From: Escherichia phage EK010
Direction: 5' to 3' (one strand)
DNA: 64,000 nt
Sequence record: NC_070981.1
The position numbers were made by a program, and so were the translations under genes. The notes beneath the pieces were generated by a model that was not told where the DNA came from, searched no databases, and saw only the letters and a program-made list of their open reading frames with translations. This document shows, in pieces, positions 2,269-57,738 of the stretch (positions within the stretch are counted from its first letter, which is position 1; each line of letters starts with the position of its first letter).

Positions 2269-3067
2269 GCGCGCTTTCCTTATTGGCTCTGACCCTGAAA
2301 TGTTTGTTCGTACTGCTTCCGGTATTATCACCTCTGTGGCTGGTAAGCTGGGCTGTTCTAAAGATAATAAAATTGATCTGGCTCCTGATGTTCGTCTTCA
2401 AGAAGACAACGTTCTGGCTGAGTTTGATATTAACCCACAGAAAGGGTTTGAAGCGTTTGATGATAATATTCAGCGTGGTATTGATCTGACTAACAAAGTT
2501 CTCAATGAACGTGGCATGGAGGCAGCACTTGGGATTAGCTCTCATGTGTTCACTTCAGAAGAACTTGAATCATTCCACCCGTCAGCTTTTGTATTTGGCT
2601 GTACTCCTGATTTCAATGCCTTCACTGGACAAAAGAACCCTTCACCAGTCGCAACCGATAAGGGTTTGCGTACTGCTGGGGGTCATGTGCACCTTGGTGT
2701 CTCCGGGACTTTAGAGATTACTCGACAAACTCAAATGATGTTGGGTGTGTTGTGTGATTACTTCCTGTCCTTGCCAGCTGTGATCATGGATAAAGACACT
2801 CGTCGTAAAGAGTTGTACGGAAAGGCTTCTGCCATTCGCTACAAAGATTACGGTATTGAATATCGTTCTCTTTCTAACTTCTGGATTGGTGATAAGTCCA
2901 CTCGCAAGTTTGTTTATGAGCAAGTGGATAAGGTTGTTCAGGGTTGTGATATGGAAGTGTTGATGTCACTTCACTCTCGCCTTCCAATTGAAAAGCTTCA
3001 TAACATCATCAACAGCAACGATGTTAAAGAAGCGGATAAATTCTCCTCTAAACTCCAGATTGTATAA
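2261..3067 (+). CDS. candidate glutamine-synthetase-like amidoligase (COOH-NH2 ligase), divergent
   Basis: Start moved to internal ATG with GGAG RBS 7 nt upstream; N-terminal 'GSDPEMF' resembles the GS 'GPEPEFF' carboxylate motif; later 'GGHVHLG' H-x-H motif. Confidence 0.35.
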   Translation: MTKRAFLIGSDPEMFVRTASGIITSVAGKLGCSKDNKIDLAPDVRLQEDNVLAEFDINPQKGFEAFDDNIQRGIDLTNKVLNERGMEAALGISSHVFTSEELESFHPSAFVFGCTPDFNAFTGQKNPSPVATDKGLRTAGGHVHLGVSGTLEITRQTQMMLGVLCDYFLSLPAVIMDKDTRRKELYGKASAIRYKDYGIEYRSLSNFWIGDKSTRKFVYEQVDKVVQGCDMEVLMSLHSRLPIEKLHNIINSNDVKEADKFSSKLQIV

Positions 3068-3076
3068 GGTGATATT

Positions 3077-3703
3077 ATGAGCTTGTTAAGAGATTTTCAA
3101 CACTATTATTGTGGAACATGGATTGCTCAGCGATCACCTGATGGTAAAAACCTCCCTCTATATGTGCTTGATGTTCGTCAGCAAGGTAACTTTGATATCG
3201 ACGACTACTCACACGACGCTGAAATGTCTTTAGTGTTTGAGGCGGAACGCTGGACTAAAAACTCTGAAGGTCAGTTTGAACGTCAGATTGTTAGTAATAT
3301 CCCAGTGTTTGATCACAGCCTCATTCTAGAGTCTCCAGATGTAGGATACCTTCAGCATGGTAATAACATGGTGAGCTGGACCCATATCAACCCTGTTCGT
3401 CAGCGAGCTAAAGGCTTGATGGGGAATAAACTTCGTGGTGCTGCACCTTCTCTCGGACGTTCGATTCCGGGTGATTTGGTGTACAACTTGTTTAATCCAG
3501 AGTTTGAAGGGTTGGTTACTCGTTTCATCTATATCAACCCTGTCGATGGAAAAGTGTATTACAAAGGGGCTTACGTTGGAAACGTGCTTCTTGAAGCTGG
3601 CTATGGCGACAACGGTCGCCAATCTTTAAACCTTCTGGAGAAGTTCAAGCATATTTCTTCAGACCTGTCATCATATAATGTAGAGTTGGTGGAATCATTA
3701 TGA
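3077..3703 (+). CDS. hypothetical protein (208 aa)
   Basis: ATG ORF with AAGGTGA RBS; sits between the two amidoligase-like genes. Confidence 0.6.
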   Translation: MSLLRDFQHYYCGTWIAQRSPDGKNLPLYVLDVRQQGNFDIDDYSHDAEMSLVFEAERWTKNSEGQFERQIVSNIPVFDHSLILESPDVGYLQHGNNMVSWTHINPVRQRAKGLMGNKLRGAAPSLGRSIPGDLVYNLFNPEFEGLVTRFIYINPVDGKVYYKGAYVGNVLLEAGYGDNGRQSLNLLEKFKHISSDLSSYNVELVESL

Positions 3704-27555: not shown

Positions 27556-27578
27556 AGCCACCTTCGGGTGGCTTTTTT
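27556..27578 (+). terminator. rho-independent terminator (UUCG tetraloop)
   Basis: AGCCACC-TTCG-GGTGGCT followed by TTTTTT, after SSB-like gene. Confidence 0.7.
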
Positions 27579-27591
27579 CGTTGGAGTTAAA

Positions 27592-27933
27592 ATGGAAAAG
27601 CTTCAAAACAATATAGGCTTTCTTATTTTCACAGCTCTTATTTTCTTTGGTGGAATGAAGTTTGAGCAATATCGAAACGATAGCAGTGCTCTTGACCAAG
27701 AGAAGAAACAACAAGAGATAGAGATTGAGAGAGCCAAGGCTGCTGATGAAGTAGCTCAGAAAGTTCTTACCGGTTTAACTAACTGGAAGAAGAACACGGA
27801 AACTATTTACAAAGAGATGCATTATGAAAAGACTAAGCCAGTTTTTTACAATGTGTGTGCTAGCGATGAGTATGTCTCTTTATTTAACCAAAGACAGGAA
27901 GAAGCTAAGAGGGTTTTAAAATCGAAGGAATAG
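27592..27933 (+). CDS. membrane protein with N-terminal TM helix and helical periplasmic region (i-spanin-like)
   Basis: ATG 27592 with GGAG RBS; 'IGFLIFTALIFFGG' TM segment then charged helical region. Confidence 0.4.
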   Translation: MEKLQNNIGFLIFTALIFFGGMKFEQYRNDSSALDQEKKQQEIEIERAKAADEVAQKVLTGLTNWKKNTETIYKEMHYEKTKPVFYNVCASDEYVSLFNQRQEEAKRVLKSKE

Positions 27934-27956: not shown

Positions 27957-28415
27957 ATGTCAGGAAAACTAACGTGGAGAAGCTCTGAAAAGAAGAGCAA
28001 TCAATGGAACTCTAGGTTTGCTGGAAAAGAGGCTGGCTGTTTGATAGATGCTGGATACATTGTTGTGAGGTTTAATGGGAAAGCACATAAAGCTCACAGA
28101 GTGGCTTGGTATTTAAAAACAGGAGAAATCCCTGATACTGATATCGACCACAAAGATCAGATTAAATCTAACAATTCTTGGACCAACCTGAGAAAAGCAA
28201 CCAATGCGCAGAATCAGATGAATACATCTGCTCAGAAGAATTCTATAACAGGTATAAAAGGTGTCGGATATAGAAAGGATGTTAACAAGTGGACTGCTCG
28301 AATAGGGTTTGAGGATAAAGTTATTTGGCTTGGTTTTCATGATACACTGGAAGGAGCTAAGTGTGCATATAAAGAAAAAGCTATTGAGTTGTACGGGGAT
28401 TTTGCTAGCTTTTAG
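27957..28415 (+). CDS. HNH homing endonuclease with AP2-like domain
   Basis: 'IDHKDQIKSNNSWTNLRKATNAQN' plus AP2-like region; conserved N-terminal motif continues upstream of the first ATG. Confidence 0.6.
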   Translation: MSGKLTWRSSEKKSNQWNSRFAGKEAGCLIDAGYIVVRFNGKAHKAHRVAWYLKTGEIPDTDIDHKDQIKSNNSWTNLRKATNAQNQMNTSAQKNSITGIKGVGYRKDVNKWTARIGFEDKVIWLGFHDTLEGAKCAYKEKAIELYGDFASF

Positions 28416-53612: not shown

Positions 53613-54359
53613 TTAACTGTAATGTTTAATTCCGTATAATTCACGAGAGCTGTGAAGACGGTCGATAGTTCGAGGGATAACTAGAGGAGAACCTGAATAC
53701 TCAGCTTTCTTACTCTGTTCAACTACTTCATCTAAGATGGCTTTCCCTAAAGCCGACCACTTCTGAACCCCATTATCATCTTGAACAAACAAGCTTGCAT
53801 GACGTAATGTGAAATATAGAAGAAGCTCTGGAGCTATTGTTAAAATTGCACTTGTATCAGAATCCTCATGAAACTCCGGAGGGTCTGCATAATAGCTAAG
53901 AATTACCGAATTCTCCGCTGGAATAAGAGGGCTTCCATCATCAGGGTAGACCGGAGTATCGGCGTTGATGGCTGGGTAGAACAGGAACCGACTTCCCAAC
54001 CTAGTAAAACTCACTTCTCCCTGATTCCAGTTAGTTGGGTTTACTGAGTTATTTCTTTTCAGCCAATCTAACTCTTCTGGAGAAGTTACTCGGAACATAT
54101 GTCCATTACTTGCTCTCATCATCCACTGAGCTTCTAAGTAGTCTGGTGGAATAAAAGCCACACCATCTTTAATATCTAAATATACTTCTTTTTCCAGAGG
54201 AGGAATTCGTAAGTTACGATAGATTTCTTTCTCTGCAAAGTTAATAAAGTTTGGAATCTGATTAACAAATTCATCATCATCCCTGTCAGCCCAGAGGGAC
54301 ACAGCTTTCTTGAGCCATCCGTAGGTATTGATGGGATATTGAACGTCAGGCATTGCCAT
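53613..54359 (-). CDS. virion protein (248 aa; candidate head-tail connector/adaptor)
   Basis: Position between capsid module and fibres; TAATGTATT motif 33 nt upstream. Confidence 0.4.
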   Translation of the reverse strand: MAMPDVQYPINTYGWLKKAVSLWADRDDDEFVNQIPNFINFAEKEIYRNLRIPPLEKEVYLDIKDGVAFIPPDYLEAQWMMRASNGHMFRVTSPEELDWLKRNNSVNPTNWNQGEVSFTRLGSRFLFYPAINADTPVYPDDGSPLIPAENSVILSYYADPPEFHEDSDTSAILTIAPELLLYFTLRHASLFVQDDNGVQKWSALGKAILDEVVEQSKKAEYSGSPLVIPRTIDRLHSSRELYGIKHYS

Positions 54360-54433: not shown

Positions 54434-54455
54434 AAGGCCACCCGAAGGCAGCCTT
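54434..54455 (-). terminator. rho-independent terminator (UUCG tetraloop) after capsid/Ig-like frame
   Basis: minus-strand AAGGCUGCC-UUCG-GGUGGCCUU then U-rich tract. Confidence 0.55.
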
Positions 54456-54459
54456 AGTT

Positions 54460-55578
54460 TTAAGCACCAGATTTAACGGTGTAGGTTTTGAACACTGTAG
54501 AACCTGGGTCAGTTCTCAGGGTTACTTTAGTATCTTCACTAGTGATAGCACCAGAGAGCGTAATTGTTAAAGCATCACCAGAAATGGTAATACTCAATTT
54601 GTCTGCATCTGTGCCTTCTACATCATATACGATAGTTCCTAGTGGAGCACCTTGAGGAACAGAAGCTATGTTAAAAACTCCTGGTTGGCTTGGGTCTGAG
54701 ATTGTCAAAGTATCACCAGCTACTGACCCATCAGACACTGCTGAAACAACTAAACCAGTAAGTTTAGGTATTACGTCTTCTATGGTAGAAGTTGCAGTTA
54801 CTGAAGTCTGGGTTTTATGAGTAGCCTTAACAGTTACATTGTCATTCGCTGTATCTGACAAGGTTAACAAGCCAGAGGTAGCATTAACAGAACCGGCAGC
54901 AGTTGGAGTTACTACGAAATTATAGTTAGTAGCAGCTGAGCGTTGAACAGTAAACATATCTGTAAAAGCGACACTGTCTCCACCAGATTTTCCAGTAATA
55001 GCAGCTTTAGCCGCGATAGTTGGAGGCTGAGGGTTGACAACAACGTTAATCACTTTAGTGACAGAAGGTTTAGTAGAAGATTTAACTGTAAGAGTAGTAC
55101 TACCTGCTGCAACAGCAGTTACACGACCAGCAGTTGTTACCGTAGCCTTAGTCGGATCTGCAATTTCCCAAGTAACACCTTGAGGTGCACCAGCAGGAGA
55201 TACAGAAGCAGTTAGATTGGTAGCATCTGGAACAGTTATGGTAAGAGTATCACCAGTTAGACCACCACCAGTTACAGCAATGGAAGCTGGGTCAGGGATT
55301 GGAGCTTTAATTTCCGAGATAACGGCAGTACCTGATACATCTTTAAGAGTAGCAGTCACTGTAATATCAGCGGTTTGAGGCGAACCTGGAGCAGTGAACA
55401 GTCCAGAAACAGAAATGGCCCCACCACCGGCTACTGACCAATCGAAGCCTGTAGTAGATGTGGAGCCATCGCTTAGTTCTGCTTCAGCTGTAAACTGTTG
55501 GGTAGCCCCGGTCAGCAGACTAGCCATTGACGCGGGACTAACAGTTACGCTGTCAACTGTTACGCCTCCACCTTTCCC
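54460..55578 (-). CDS. Ig-like-domain C-terminal extension of the major capsid protein, reached by -1 frameshift
   Basis: Open frame is -1 relative to MCP and begins inside the MCP 3' end; slippery G-GGA-AAG at 55578-55572; Ig-like repeats downstream. Confidence 0.5.
   Translation of the reverse strand, partial: GKGGGVTVDSVTVSPASMASLLTGATQQFTAEAELSDGSTSTTGFDWSVAGGGAISVSGLFTAPGSPQTADITVTATLKDVSGTAVISEIKAPIPDPASIAVTGGGLTGDTLTITVPDATNLTASVSPAGAPQGVTWEIADPTKATVTTAGRVTAVAAGSTTLTVKSSTKPSVTKVINVVVNPQPPTIAAKAAITGKSGGDSVAFTDMFTVQRSAATNYNFVVTPTAAGSVNATSGLLTLSDTANDNVTVKATHKTQTSVTATSTIEDVIPKLTGLVVSAVSDGSVAGDTLTISDPSQPGVFNIASVPQGAPLGTIVYDVEGTDADKLSITISGDALTITLSGAITSEDTKVTLRTDPGSTVFKTYTVKSGA
55539..55578 (-). 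other. programmed -1 ribosomal frameshift cassette: slippery heptamer G-GGA-AAG, 9-nt spacer, 8-bp hairpin
   Basis: Heptamer at 55578-55572 in MCP frame (Ala-Gly-Lys codons 346-348); stem TAACAGTT/AACTGTTA at 55562-55555 and 55546-55539. Confidence 0.5.
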
Positions 55579-56615
55579 GCAGCGGTGAACAATACACCAG
55601 AAGCATATGGGTTGCGGTGACGCAGACCAACTTCCATTTCGATCATCCATTTCTCGTAAGAACCATCTTTCGCCAGTTCAGTACGTTTCGGAGCACGAAG
55701 AACCATCTGAGTCCAGTCAGAGCTGCGGAAGAAGTAAACTGCATCAGCAGGCATCCAACGGTTAACGATGATTTTATAGCTCTGACCCAGCGGGTCAGTG
55801 ATGCTGTTAACTTCATAGATGAACTGTTTGGTGTTCTCAAAGATACGCTGACGAGAACCAACAGAGTTTTCCTGAAGCTTAGCAAAGATGCTAGCGTGAG
55901 CAGGGTTAATCATGATGATGTCTGCTTCAGAACCGGCGGTATACAGTTGCAGAGTCATATCAAAGATATCAGCTTCATCAAAACCGATGTTCGTAGTCGG
56001 GTTAGAAGCATTCTGTGCAACTTTAACAGTTACTGCACCAGTATCTGGGTCAGCAGGACCATCTTCTTTCTTAACAACACCACTAGCAACACCGTTGTGT
56101 GCACACAGGAACTGGAAAGCACCAGTCTTACGAGCAGCTGAGGTGTCATTCTGACCTACAACAGCAGGATCAGTTGCAGAGTTGGTCAGATACTGGTCTG
56201 CCAGAATATCGGTACGAGCCTGACCGGACAGCAAGATTTTCTCGAGGTCACGTTTAATCTCTTTACCTTTCTTCTCCAGCTGATACATCAGTTCACGACC
56301 ACGACCGTAGTTAGCGGTGGTGTTAGCAGTATCAGAAACACGAACAACTTTACGCAGGATCTGAGTAACGTTGGACTTGATTACAGTCGGTTTCATTTCG
56401 CCGTCTTCAGCACGAGAGCCTTCGACGTGGGCGTTGTTAGCATCTACGCTCGCCAGAGCATCGGTCTGCCAGCTGAAAATAGTCTGATTGATAGACTCTT
56501 TACCAGTCATAGACACAAACGGAGTGTCTTGCGGAGACAGGACAGAAATCCAGTTAGCAAAAGAAAGTTTTTTACCATTCTGGTCGTAAGATACAAATAA
56601 AGTTGGATTTGCCAT
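55560..56615 (-). CDS. major capsid protein
   Basis: 351 aa ORF directly downstream of scaffold gene, portal-scaffold-capsid order; frameshift into Ig-like extension. Confidence 0.6.
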   Translation of the reverse strand: MANPTLFVSYDQNGKKLSFANWISVLSPQDTPFVSMTGKESINQTIFSWQTDALASVDANNAHVEGSRAEDGEMKPTVIKSNVTQILRKVVRVSDTANTTANYGRGRELMYQLEKKGKEIKRDLEKILLSGQARTDILADQYLTNSATDPAVVGQNDTSAARKTGAFQFLCAHNGVASGVVKKEDGPADPDTGAVTVKVAQNASNPTTNIGFDEADIFDMTLQLYTAGSEADIIMINPAHASIFAKLQENSVGSRQRIFENTKQFIYEVNSITDPLGQSYKIIVNRWMPADAVYFFRSSDWTQMVLRAPKRTELAKDGSYEKWMIEMEVGLRHRNPYASGVLFTAAGKVEA

Positions 56616-56655: not shown

Positions 56656-57738
56656 TTAATCTACGAGATACTTAAATGCGTCTTCGTGACGAATACGACC
56701 CTCTGAGAATGCCTTGGCAACCTTAGCGTTGTCTGGCGTATTGGAAGAACGAGACTTAGAAGCATCGGACTTCACAACCTTGCGTGGAGAGCCGGGACGT
56801 TTAATCTTAGCCATCACCTGCTGCTTACCTTTATCAAACTGGTATGCTTTGTGTAGAGCTAGGAAGATTGACGGACGGTTCTCTTTCAGCACTTCTTCTT
56901 CTGTAGCACCTAAGTCGATTGCGTACTGCATCAGGTTCTGATACAAGTTGTCATCCCAATTAGGAATCTCACGTTTAAGTACGCTTACACACTCAGTACA
57001 TTTAGCTTGGAAGAGCTGTTGTTCTTTTGCTAGTGCTTCTTGCTTGATTTTAAGCTGAGCTTGTTCAAGCTGTTGGCGACGAGCTGTATATTTTTCTAAG
57101 AAACGTTTGTTTTCTACATAAGCTTGAGGATCTTCTTGTGCAAGTTTGTCCCAATCAAAACCGTTGTAATCTTCAATTACTCGGTCTGCTTCTAGGGCAG
57201 CTAGTTCTAATACATCCCCCAAGCCAGCAACACGTTCTTCAAAAGCTTCAACATGACGCTGCAAAGTAGTCTCACGTTCGGACATTTCTGCACCAGTCAA
57301 ATAGCCATTAGACAACTCTTCAATAGTCATCTCACGACCATCAGGAAGGGTGATAACAGTTTCATAATCTACGTCAAAGACTTCACCTTCTTCGCCATCT
57401 TCGTCACTGTTAGCAGCTTCATCGTGACCTGCTTCACCGGAATCATCTTCTTCATCTTCTTCATCAGAGAACTCAGACTCTTCCTCTTCTTCTTCGCCTT
57501 CCTCTTCACGATCTTCCCAACCATCTTCATCTTCGAACGCTAACGTATCGTCATCACCGAGAAGGTCGGAAGCATCAAGATCAAAAGTCTCAGACTGTTC
57601 TGGGAATTCATCATCGATGTTCACTTCTGGTTCACGTTCTGATTCTAATTGACTAAGCTCTTCTTTGAAGGAGCCTTTTAAGTCGTCTAGTTGGAGGAAA
57701 GATTTAAAATCGTTCGGGTCAATATAATCATTTGCCAT
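56656..57738 (-). CDS. scaffolding protein
   Basis: Extremely acidic central region (Asp/Glu runs) and coiled-coil C-terminus; between portal and capsid genes. Confidence 0.55.
   Translation of the reverse strand: MANDYIDPNDFKSFLQLDDLKGSFKEELSQLESEREPEVNIDDEFPEQSETFDLDASDLLGDDDTLAFEDEDGWEDREEEGEEEEEESEFSDEEDEEDDSGEAGHDEAANSDEDGEEGEVFDVDYETVITLPDGREMTIEELSNGYLTGAEMSERETTLQRHVEAFEERVAGLGDVLELAALEADRVIEDYNGFDWDKLAQEDPQAYVENKRFLEKYTARRQQLEQAQLKIKQEALAKEQQLFQAKCTECVSVLKREIPNWDDNLYQNLMQYAIDLGATEEEVLKENRPSIFLALHKAYQFDKGKQQVMAKIKRPGSPRKVVKSDASKSRSSNTPDNAKVAKAFSEGRIRHEDAFKYLVD

Follow-up and report, generated by a model that had tools for sequence, protein, structure and literature searches.

Directly behind the major capsid protein gene of Escherichia phage EK010 lies a long open reading frame (ORF) which encodes Ig-like modules and begins, in the -1 frame, before the capsid gene has ended. 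Is this ORF a gene of its own, or is it translated only as an extension of the capsid protein? An earlier note on this DNA had proposed the latter, by means of a programmed -1 frameshift close to the capsid stop codon. We followed up this proposal in the window, i.e. the whole stretch of 64,000 nucleotides (NC_070981.1) that was analysed. All features described here are located on its minus strand. Judged from the sequence, it is highly probable that a -1 programmed frameshift at G_GGA_AAG gives rise to a minor capsid isoform with four Ig-like modules.

The capsid gene, the Ig-like ORF and their annotation

The window represents a Kuravirus (phiEco32/SU10-like podophage) and shows 99.8% DNA identity to Escherichia phage E20-1, with which it shares the gene order scaffold, capsid, Ig ORF, adaptor, tail fibre. 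The major capsid protein gene, defined here as 0 frame and taken from the ORF list (55560..56615; stop codon TAA at 55562-55560), encodes a protein of 351 aa and 38.7 kDa which matches the Pfam family SU10_MCP (PF17236, E = 3e-79). The gene next to the Ig ORF belongs to the SU10_adaptor family according to a Pfam profile match. Both capsid family and gene order fit the phiEco32/SU10-like type, and the locus is the head module of a Kuravirus.

The -1 frame, said by the earlier note to stay open for 370 codons, indeed runs from 55572 to 54463 and is closed by a TAA at 54462-54460 (54460..55572 including the stop). The extension is acidic (pI 4.4) and is predicted to be translated only as a fusion. 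Repeated Ig-like modules had been claimed for it as well, and we find two Big_2 domains above the Pfam cut-off (PF02368, gathering score 22.8 bits) plus two modelled beta-sandwich modules. As a whole, the extension scores 41.1 bits against PF02368 (E = 1.7e-10), the best stretch being residues 104-173. These residues constitute domain 2 (55054..55263; profile positions 6-77 of 79). Domain 1 (55324..55557) comprises extension residues 6-83 and aligns to profile positions 2-75 of 79 (E = 7e-6, 26.3 bits). The two further modules (54463..55020; residues ~185-270 and ~272-370) are taken from an AlphaFold2 model of the extension, which is all-beta, shows four beta-sandwich modules in total and exceeds a pLDDT of 90 over residues 181-370; for these modules 3 and 4 no Pfam match was found. 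The module at residues ~185-270 appears to be repeated in the consensus of longer relatives. Foldseek comparison with the PDB matched the extension to tandem Ig/cadherin arrays, to the Ig domains of the SU10 nozzle and to the N4 capsid decoration protein.

About ten of the 124 matching GenBank records were inspected with respect to annotation. Every record sampled, including E20-1, Bas87, phiEco32 and SU7, lists capsid and Ig ORF as two genes. The starts assigned to the Ig gene are mutually inconsistent among these records, and a joining of capsid and Ig ORF by ribosomal slippage is absent from them; E20-1, the nearest record, carries no frameshift annotation. In the SU7 record RBSs are annotated for the neighbouring genes, and none for the Ig gene. 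Homologues of the extension with 231-527 aa are found on Kuravirus-like contigs of ~77 kb, always called as separate ORFs, and no capsid-Ig fused entry was found among the 66 homologues of the extension in the protein database. Annotation would gain from the frameshift, as a capsid gene and a 'hypothetical' or 'Ig domain' gene would become one ribosomal-slippage CDS of 718 aa.

Slippery heptamer, overlap and downstream stem-loop

In the 0 frame the capsid gene ends with ...TTC ACC GCT GCG GGA AAG GTG GAG GCG TAA. The heptamer G_GGA_AAG is read directly at 55572..55578, where the earlier note had placed it; it is a canonical X_XXY_YYZ site in the correct phase with the capsid frame, the 0-frame codons over it being GCG GGA AAG (Ala346-Gly347-Lys348). 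Heptamer and capsid TAA are 9 nt apart, and the 9-nt spacer that had been described is GTGGAGGCG at 55571-55563. Most ribosomes would translate GGA-AAG-GTG-GAG-GCG-TAA and terminate with the 351-aa capsid protein. A smaller fraction would slip back by one base, whereby the tRNAs for Gly and Lys on G_GGA_AAG pair anew with GGG-AAA, and would go on with GGT-GGA-GGC..., i.e. a Gly3 linker and then four Ig-like beta-sandwich modules. The predicted fusion of about 718 aa beside the 351-aa protein agrees with the reading frames (348 + 370 = 718 aa, 74.9 kDa). At its predicted junction TAAGK is joined to GGGVTVDS; the junction peptide is TAAGKGGGVTVDS, and TAAGKGGGVTVDSVTVSPASM (or a similar one) is the predicted chymotryptic peptide of the junction. 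Trypsin would cut at the junction itself, behind Lys348, and next only 77 residues later, so that tryptic peptides would not span it. The HK97-type capsid body is complete in the long isoform, which should therefore be built into the prolate head together with the plain protein and carry the Ig array on the outside. Displayed in this way, the array would probably act in weak adhesion or as a stabilising decoration. We infer that slipping takes place in this phage. Lambda G-T, which has the same heptamer, and T7 gene 10 suggest by analogy that its efficiency may amount to a few percent.

Among 17 distinct Kuravirus-like sequences G_GGA_AAG is invariant and the -1 ORF is open in all, over 178-545 codons. 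At this low divergence the invariance of the three heptamer codons is statistically weak evidence, 44 of the 79 amino-acid-invariant codons being nucleotide-invariant too. The upstream region was partly fixed by the search pattern for relatives, and invariance there was disregarded. Purifying selection is indicated by the ORF itself, since 370 codons with intact Ig-like domains are kept open in every relative. The extension of phiEco32 and SU7 has 178 aa as compared to 370 aa here. In another family, Proteus phage P59 carries G_GGA_AAG_TAA and an Ig extension of 169 codons. Salmonella phage 7-11 gp009 and Cronobacter phage A24 gp101 contain SU10_MCP and Big_2 in a single ORF.

The overlap between the two frames corresponds to the spacer (55563..55571), which is read as Val-Glu-Ala in the 0 frame and as part of the Gly-Gly-Gly linker in the -1 frame. 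Eight nucleotide variants of it occur among the relatives. Their 0-frame translations differ (VEA, VAA, AGA, AVAA, VVA, AAA, VAAA), and in the -1 frame they always consist of Gly and Ser only (GGG, GGS, GSGG). We show here that the -1 frame across the overlap is coding. The GGAGG within the spacer was considered as a Shine-Dalgarno (SD) sequence for an internal start and rejected: it is not conserved, reading GGCGG or GGGAG in relatives, and the sole start codon at a suitable distance, a TTG, is out of frame.

Regarding the 8-bp hairpin at 9-nt spacing, the earlier note was right about its presence and position and has to be corrected as to its extent. The arms TAACAGTT (55562-55555) and AACTGTTA (55546-55539) form 8 bp, or 9 bp with a G-U pair, around a loop of 6-8 nt (55539..55562 in total). 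The hairpin begins 9 nt past the heptamer, and the capsid stop codon opens its 5' arm. A larger, interrupted stem-loop of 40 nt with 16 pairs (55571-55532), which starts directly after the heptamer, contains it as its upper part. The upper hairpin alone is weak, with 2 G-C pairs and a folding energy of -7.1 kcal/mol; the 40-nt stem-loop has -18.3 kcal/mol. The stability of the 72-nt downstream region is not significant (z = -1.48; 16 of 200 shuffles fold equally well). The structure is conserved, in that 94% of the stem-loop cells are paired across 9 distinct relatives, and 11 of the 16 pairs never vary; compensatory changes were not found among these 9, which makes this test uninformative. 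No Rfam match was obtained for 55350-55750 at E up to 1, and no SD-like element upstream of the heptamer was seen on reading the sequence. Located 9 nt past the heptamer, the downstream hairpin may help slipping.

Within ORFs of 100 aa or more, the window contains 60 canonical in-frame heptamers, with a median -1 extension of 8 codons. Among them, only the capsid site continues into recognised domains lacking a start of their own. Five others read on for 153-724 codons, three of them in ORFs that lie inside longer ORFs in another frame. One of the five, T_TTA_AAA at 27915, likewise precedes a stop by 9 nt, and its -1 reading runs 164 codons into the next gene. Transcriptional slippage was dismissed as a mechanism at the capsid site, given that by established knowledge runs of three G and three A are too short.

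Translation start of the Ig ORF and rival explanations

Expression of the Ig ORF as a gene of its own would start at the ATG used by annotators (55525..55527), which is extension residue 16 and lies 33 nt after the capsid stop, perhaps by reinitiation after termination at the capsid TAA. A free decoration protein of 355 aa (35.2 kDa) bound non-covalently to the capsid would result, and the heptamer would be coincidental. The presence of this in-frame ATG and the two-gene annotation in all GenBank records sampled speak for such a gene, as does the cryo-EM study of SU10, which treats gp10 as a separate, possibly loosely bound minor capsid protein (PMC9509320). However, the SD duplex energy at this ATG is +1.0 kcal/mol as compared to -6.5 to -10.2 kcal/mol for the neighbouring genes (-6.5 kcal/mol at the capsid ATG). 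The start is not conserved either: the codon at its position is GTG in E20-1 and Bas87, TTA in phiEco32 and GTT in L004. Depending on the lineage, candidate ATG or GTG starts are found at +24, +45, +99 or +138 nt, all with SD energies of -1.7 kcal/mol or weaker, and some lineages offer no possible start until 33-46 codons into the domain. Across the 17 distinct relatives no conserved start or SD sequence for the Ig ORF was found. Moreover, Big_2 domain 1 begins 6 residues past the shift, 10 residues upstream of the annotated ATG and upstream of all annotated starts. As its alignment begins at extension residue 6 with profile position 2, its first strand would be lost with any internal start. 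The same holds for an independent decoration-protein gene of the Hoc, gpD or phi29 head-fibre type, for which no RBS or start of its own was found, every candidate start truncating the domain. The Ig ORF lacks a translation start of its own, and from its sequence context ATG 55527 is probably merely an internal Met codon. A separate gene also leaves unexplained the invariant heptamer, the Gly/Ser overlap and the in-frame fusions of 7-11 and A24; we consider it improbable. Given the position of the ATG so close behind the capsid stop, a certain amount of reinitiation may nevertheless occur.

According to a further rival, heptamer and -1 ORF are an inherited relic, slipping being negligible or the long isoform being kept out of virions, so that particles consist entirely of the 351-aa protein. 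The weakness of the hairpin fits with this, and so do two reports on SU10. In the cryo-EM reconstruction the capsid protein is uniform and extra density is absent (PMC9509320), and the YF01 authors state that an extended SU10 band was not observed on SDS-PAGE (PMC9965538). Yet the latter authors blame this result on a premature -1 stop reported in, and unique to, the SU10 sequence (PMC9965538), and symmetrised cryo-EM would average out an isoform present in a few flexible copies per head. Their report on SU10 conflicts with earlier mass spectrometry, for which the relevant passages of the SU10 paper give capsid forms of 38.5 and 55.4 kDa (PMC4281155). A relic is also hard to reconcile with a 370-codon ORF with intact Ig-like domains whose counterparts are open in every relative (178-545 codons), and we regard it as very unlikely, more so than the separate gene. 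The -1 shift fusing the capsid protein to Ig-like modules, as put forward in the earlier note, remains the best reading: the heptamer is conserved, there is no conserved start or SD sequence, and domain 1 begins upstream of the ATG. The frameshift is further backed by the one-ORF fusions in related phages and by published work (PMC4281155, PMC9965538, PMC7881722).

A start further upstream in the -1 frame, ATG 55650, would yield a 396-aa protein and was rejected, as in 10 of the 17 relatives this frame is closed by a stop located 60 nt before the heptamer. Concerning transcription, the stretch from the capsid stop to the Ig ORF contains no terminator-like site. The sole one found, a GC hairpin with a T-run (54434..54455), follows the extension 5 nt past its stop and closes the transcription unit of capsid and extension. 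The only promoter-like match on the minus strand (55798-55771) is inside the capsid gene, and such matches are no more frequent than in shuffles.

Relation to known frameshifts and capsid extensions

The GGGAAAG capsid frameshift is already known and has been published for phiEco32, SU10, Privateer and YF01. As cited in passages of later papers, it was proposed for phiEco32 by Savalia in 2008 (PMC4281155, PMC9965538); in the literature as represented by these passages it was restated for the group from 2014 to 2023, so that no open question becomes newly testable here. The YF01 paper describes the capsid shift for the whole phage group, the YF01 isoform having 892 aa (PMC9965538). For Privateer, the pertinent passages report that the capsid protein gives two gel bands and that the minor form was analysed by mass spectrometry (PMC7881722). 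The published mass spectrometry passages on SU10 and Privateer do not mention a junction-spanning peptide (PMC4281155, PMC7881722).

phiEco32 gp11/gp12, SU10 CDS9+10 and YF01 gp8 share with the present locus the SU10_MCP family, GGGAAAG 9-12 nt before a TAA, the -1 direction, the VTVDSVTVSP start of Big_2 and synteny; extension length is the sole difference. Privateer and P59 (Grimontviridae, Privateervirus) likewise carry GGGAAAG where an SU10-type capsid gene ends, together with a -1 Ig-like extension. In contrast to the locus described here, their heptamer abuts the stop without an overlap linker, the extension has 169 aa, and capsid tail and downstream structure are unlike. What results in 7-11 gp009 and A24 gp101, second capsid paralogues, is again an SU10-type capsid protein with C-terminal Big_2 beside a plain capsid protein, whereas the route differs: a tandem duplicate capsid gene, located after a terminator following the short capsid gene, is extended in frame without recoding.

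It is an evenly balanced possibility that SU10-type capsids gain minority subunits with Ig arrays by three interchangeable routes, the array varying by whole modules as in a fast-evolving capsid adhesin. A canonical shift at G_GGA_AAG appears to be used in Kuravirus and Privateervirus. In uncultured relatives of 82-90 kb, which lack an X_XXY_YYZ site and have a -1 ORF of 169-171 codons with two Big_2 domains, the route is probably a non-canonical shift at GTA_AAG (A_AAG), 3 nt before the stop; a strong GC hairpin lies 6 nt downstream of GTA_AAG. In one of these relatives, L008, the site reads GTA_AAG_GCG_TAA. The third route, in 7-11 and A24, appears to be a duplication of the capsid gene in tandem, one copy carrying the Ig domains as an in-frame fusion. 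Between near-identical capsid genes the Ig array differs by whole modules (178-545 aa), and such modular variation would be expected of a rapidly evolving adhesin on the capsid surface. The variable array is a candidate for adherence to surfaces or mucus, and capsid display could possibly be engineered there. The locus would be a further, well-conserved example of recoding by which a phage sets the proportion of plain and decorated capsid protein.

Outside of this capsid family, lambda G/G-T has a slippery sequence identical to the site described here. Levin, Hendrix and Casjens reportedly described in 1993 that in lambda G/G-T the sequence G_GGA_AAG, close to the 3' end of the upstream gene, directs a -1 shift with an efficiency of a few percent. 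The lambda G-T shift is not known to need a downstream structure. It differs from the present case in that a tail assembly chaperone, and not a capsid protein, is extended, the product being an assembly factor absent from virions. T7 and T3 gene 10A-10B are alike in that the major capsid gene has a -1 shift close to its 3' end, from which a minor, longer isoform results that co-assembles; they differ in a capsid family unrelated in sequence. The slip site of T7 is not GGGAAAG, and its extension comprises only ~50 aa, not a four-module Ig array. The shift rates cited in PMC9965538 are ~3.5% for lambda G-T and ~10% for T7 gene 10.

The capsid gene end and its -1 extension

The 2.4 kb surrounding the predicted frameshift site are 99.8% identical at the DNA level to Escherichia phage E20-1 (Gordonclarkvirinae, Kuravirus) and 86-96% identical to phiEco32, SU7, Bas86-88 and other phiEco32-like podophages. 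The minus strand carries, in this order, the scaffold gene (57738..56656), the major capsid protein gene (56615..55560; Pfam SU10_MCP, E = 3e-79), the Ig-like ORF, an SU10-type adaptor gene (54359..53613) and a tail fibre gene. The capsid gene tail reads TTC ACC GCT GCG GGA AAG GTG GAG GCG TAA CAG TTG ACA GCG TAA CTG TTA G. It contains the slippery heptamer G_GGA_AAG (55578-55572, minus strand) in X_XXY_YYZ phase with the capsid frame, and the capsid stop codon starts 9 nt past it. After a slip, the -1 frame is open for 370 codons up to a TAA at 54462-54460. The predicted fusion comprises 718 aa (348 + 370; 74.9 kDa, compared to 38.7 kDa for the plain protein) and joins TAAGK to GGGVTVDS. Re-reading of the sequence confirmed every figure of the earlier note, i.e. 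heptamer position, spacer, hairpin, -1 ORF length and fusion size.

Two Big_2 domains are detected by Pfam: extension residues 6-83 score 26.3 bits (profile positions 2-75 of 79), and a second match covers residues 104-173. An AlphaFold2 model of the extension, built with 31 homologues (mean pLDDT 78.6, above 90 over residues 181-370), predicts an all-beta protein of four successive sandwich modules. Foldseek searches of the PDB with this model retrieved tandem Ig/cadherin arrays and S-layer proteins as well as the SU10 Ig-like nozzle domains and the N4 capsid decoration protein. Homologues of the extension are 231-527 aa long, reside on Kuravirus-like contigs of about 77 kb and vary in copy number of the third module ('ITGK...VKATHKTQTSVTAT').

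No terminator-like hairpin follows the capsid stop. The sole one at the locus, AAGGCTGCC-TTCG-GGTGGCCTT with a T-run (54455-54434, minus strand), lies 5 nt past the extension stop and would end the transcript of capsid gene and extension ahead of the adaptor gene. Judged by this arrangement, the two probably form one transcription unit.

Frameshifting or a separate gene

The Ig-like ORF might alternatively be a separate gene with its own start, and GenBank annotates it with one. None of seven records (OP293233, PQ850594, EU330206, MZ342906, PQ818763, NC_018859, JX867715) gives the capsid slippage as a joined CDS; they start the ORF 12, 33, 126 or more nt past the capsid stop and are thus mutually inconsistent. 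The annotators' ATG at 55527 has a Shine-Dalgarno (SD) duplex energy of +1.0 kcal/mol, compared to -6.5 to -10.2 kcal/mol for four neighbouring genes, and the matching codon is GTG in E20-1 and Bas87, TTA in phiEco32 and GTT in the relative L004. Depending on the relative, a start is first possible at +24, +45, +99 or +138 nt, in no case with an SD, and the SU7 record marks ribosome binding sites for neighbouring genes, but none for the Ig-like ORF. Moreover, since the first Big_2 domain begins 6 residues past the shift, every candidate start would delete its first strand. Two further observations concern GenBank records: the NJ01 record has no capsid CDS in the stretch shown, and MZ417522.1 (24,953 bp, 'Mycolicibacterium phage J1') matches the E. 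coli Kuravirus capsid/Ig junction with 86% DNA identity. Such a match is hardly to be expected of a mycobacteriophage, and the record may well be mislabelled or contaminated.

The heptamer is invariant in 17 distinct Kuravirus-like sequences, drawn from phages in GenBank, from IMG/VR and from a metagenome scan that started from an upstream capsid motif, and lies 9-12 nt ahead of the TAA. In all 17 the -1 ORF is open (178, 179, 180, 370, 372, 437, 443, 455 or 545 codons). Proteus phage P59, of a different family (Grimontviridae), has G_GGA_AAG_TAA and a 169-codon extension rich in Ig-like sequence. In the overlap of 9-12 nt between heptamer and stop, all eight nucleotide variants encode Gly/Ser-only linkers in the -1 frame (GGG, GGS, GSGG), whereas the 0-frame reading drifts among VEA, VAA, AGA, AVAA and others; by this pattern, the overlap is evidently read in the -1 frame. 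Frameshifting is therefore favoured over a separate gene, as the earlier note had proposed: the heptamer is conserved, a conserved start is missing, the domain boundary and the Gly/Ser overlap fit the shift, relatives carry in-frame fusions, capsid gene and extension appear to be one transcription unit and protein data are published for relatives. We consider it very probable that a -1 shift generates the capsid-Ig fusion.

A hairpin of 8-9 bp follows at the classical 9-nt spacing and is kept with 7-9 bp in all relatives. Its 5' arm TAACAGTT (55562-55555, minus strand), whose first three bases are the capsid stop codon, pairs with the 3' arm AACTGTTA (55546-55539, minus strand). It forms the top of an interrupted 40-nt stem-loop of 16 pairs (-18.3 kcal/mol) beginning directly past the heptamer; the upper hairpin alone yields only -7.1 kcal/mol. 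Compared to shuffled sequences, the region has no excess stability (z = -1.48), and among 9 distinct sequences 11 of the 16 pairs are invariant with no compensatory change. Since the repeated VTV...VTV peptide is encoded in the two arms, constraint on the protein could by itself account for the conservation. The G-T shift of phage lambda uses the same heptamer and is not known to require a downstream structure. Being weak, not unusually stable and free of covariation, and given the lambda case, the hairpin is only a possible stimulator. For SU10, Mirzaei et al. (PMC4281155) propose another stem-loop, in which the heptamer itself takes part.

Window ORFs of at least 100 aa contain 60 in-frame canonical heptamers, past which the -1 frame continues for a median of 8 codons. 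Besides the capsid site, five can be read on for 153-724 codons; in three cases the ORF with the heptamer is itself nested within a longer one in another frame, e.g. the 1073-aa fibre gene. Only at the capsid site does the -1 continuation have recognised domains and lack its own start. Another of the five, T_TTA_AAA (27915-27921, plus strand), is in frame 9 nt ahead of the stop of a 121-aa ORF (27568..27933), annotated as Rz-like spanin in relatives. In the -1 frame, 164 codons follow and lead into the ORF (27957..28415) of a homing endonuclease with HNH_3 and AP2 domains. The residues IEEFLSYDE precede the endonuclease ATG with no earlier start codon there, and presumably continue the usual N-terminal motif of the family. 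Because the endonuclease is missing in many relatives (52% coverage), this heptamer is probably due to chance.

Possible other routes to the long capsid form

Six uncultured relatives of 82-90 kb (L008-L010, L021, L025, L030; about 66% capsid identity; region L008:4413-4924) have no canonical X_XXY_YYZ heptamer at the capsid gene end, which reads CTG AAG GTA AAG GCG TAA. A strong GC hairpin (GCGYCC-CTAC-GGGCGT) starts 6 nt past AAG, and the -1 ORF of 169-171 codons encodes two Big_2 domains with no evident start. These features suggest a non-canonical single-tRNA -1 shift on A_AAG.

Salmonella phage 7-11 gp009 (585 aa) and Cronobacter phage A24 gp101 combine SU10_MCP and Big_2 in a single ORF beside a plain capsid gene. 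Two tandem SU10-type capsid genes are present in 7-11 (L018:692-3468), A24 (L019:1712-3816) and one further contig (L012 and L022), the short gene being followed by a terminator-like hairpin and the second gene carrying Big_2 fused in frame. From this gene arrangement, duplication appears to replace frameshifting as the source of the long isoform. The second A24 gene stops mid-Big_2 (profile positions 3-46 of 79), only 3 nt before the next annotated ORF (region L019:3700-4259). Either a sequencing error or one more case of recoding or readthrough could account for this. In L013, another relative, a second capsid paralogue with a long non-Big_2 tail (2278-3367) lies upstream of the short capsid gene. 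A capsid gene end of L013, GTA AAA AAG GCG TAA, holds a dnaX-type A_AAA_AAG 3 nt ahead of the stop; the -1 extension there covers 42 codons and is rich in Pro, Val and Lys (region L013:4421-4552).

Published precedent

The capsid frameshift of this group has been published before, and the window holds another member of a described recoding system, its version of the extension being 370 aa in four modules. For SU10, Mirzaei et al. 2014 (PMC4281155) describe 'a potential ribosomal slippage (GGGAAAG)' within the major head gene, by which, they state, it is fused to the Ig-like CDS10 'as in phage phiEco32'; they also list capsid forms of 38.5 and 55.4 kDa by mass spectrometry. For Privateer (2021; PMC7881722), this heptamer is reported together with two bands of capsid protein and mass spectrometric data, and the authors add that phiEco32 and SU10 had been seen to make the frameshifted product. 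The shift at GGGAAAG was described in 2023 for 'YF01 and other group phages', whose extension sizes are given as ranging between about 500-550 aa and 892-894 aa (PMC9965538). On the contrary side, the cryo-EM study of SU10 (PMC9509320) found the capsid devoid of additional density and regarded gp10 as a protein of its own, and the YF01 authors report SDS-PAGE without an extended band for SU10, which they explain by a premature -1 stop that only the SU10 sequence has (PMC9965538).

What the finding contributes is an annotation fix and a comparison of the different ways in which one product is reached. In mechanism the capsid site resembles the lambda G-T shift, down to the identical heptamer, and in logic gene 10 of T7 and T3, where a minor longer capsid isoform is likewise made.
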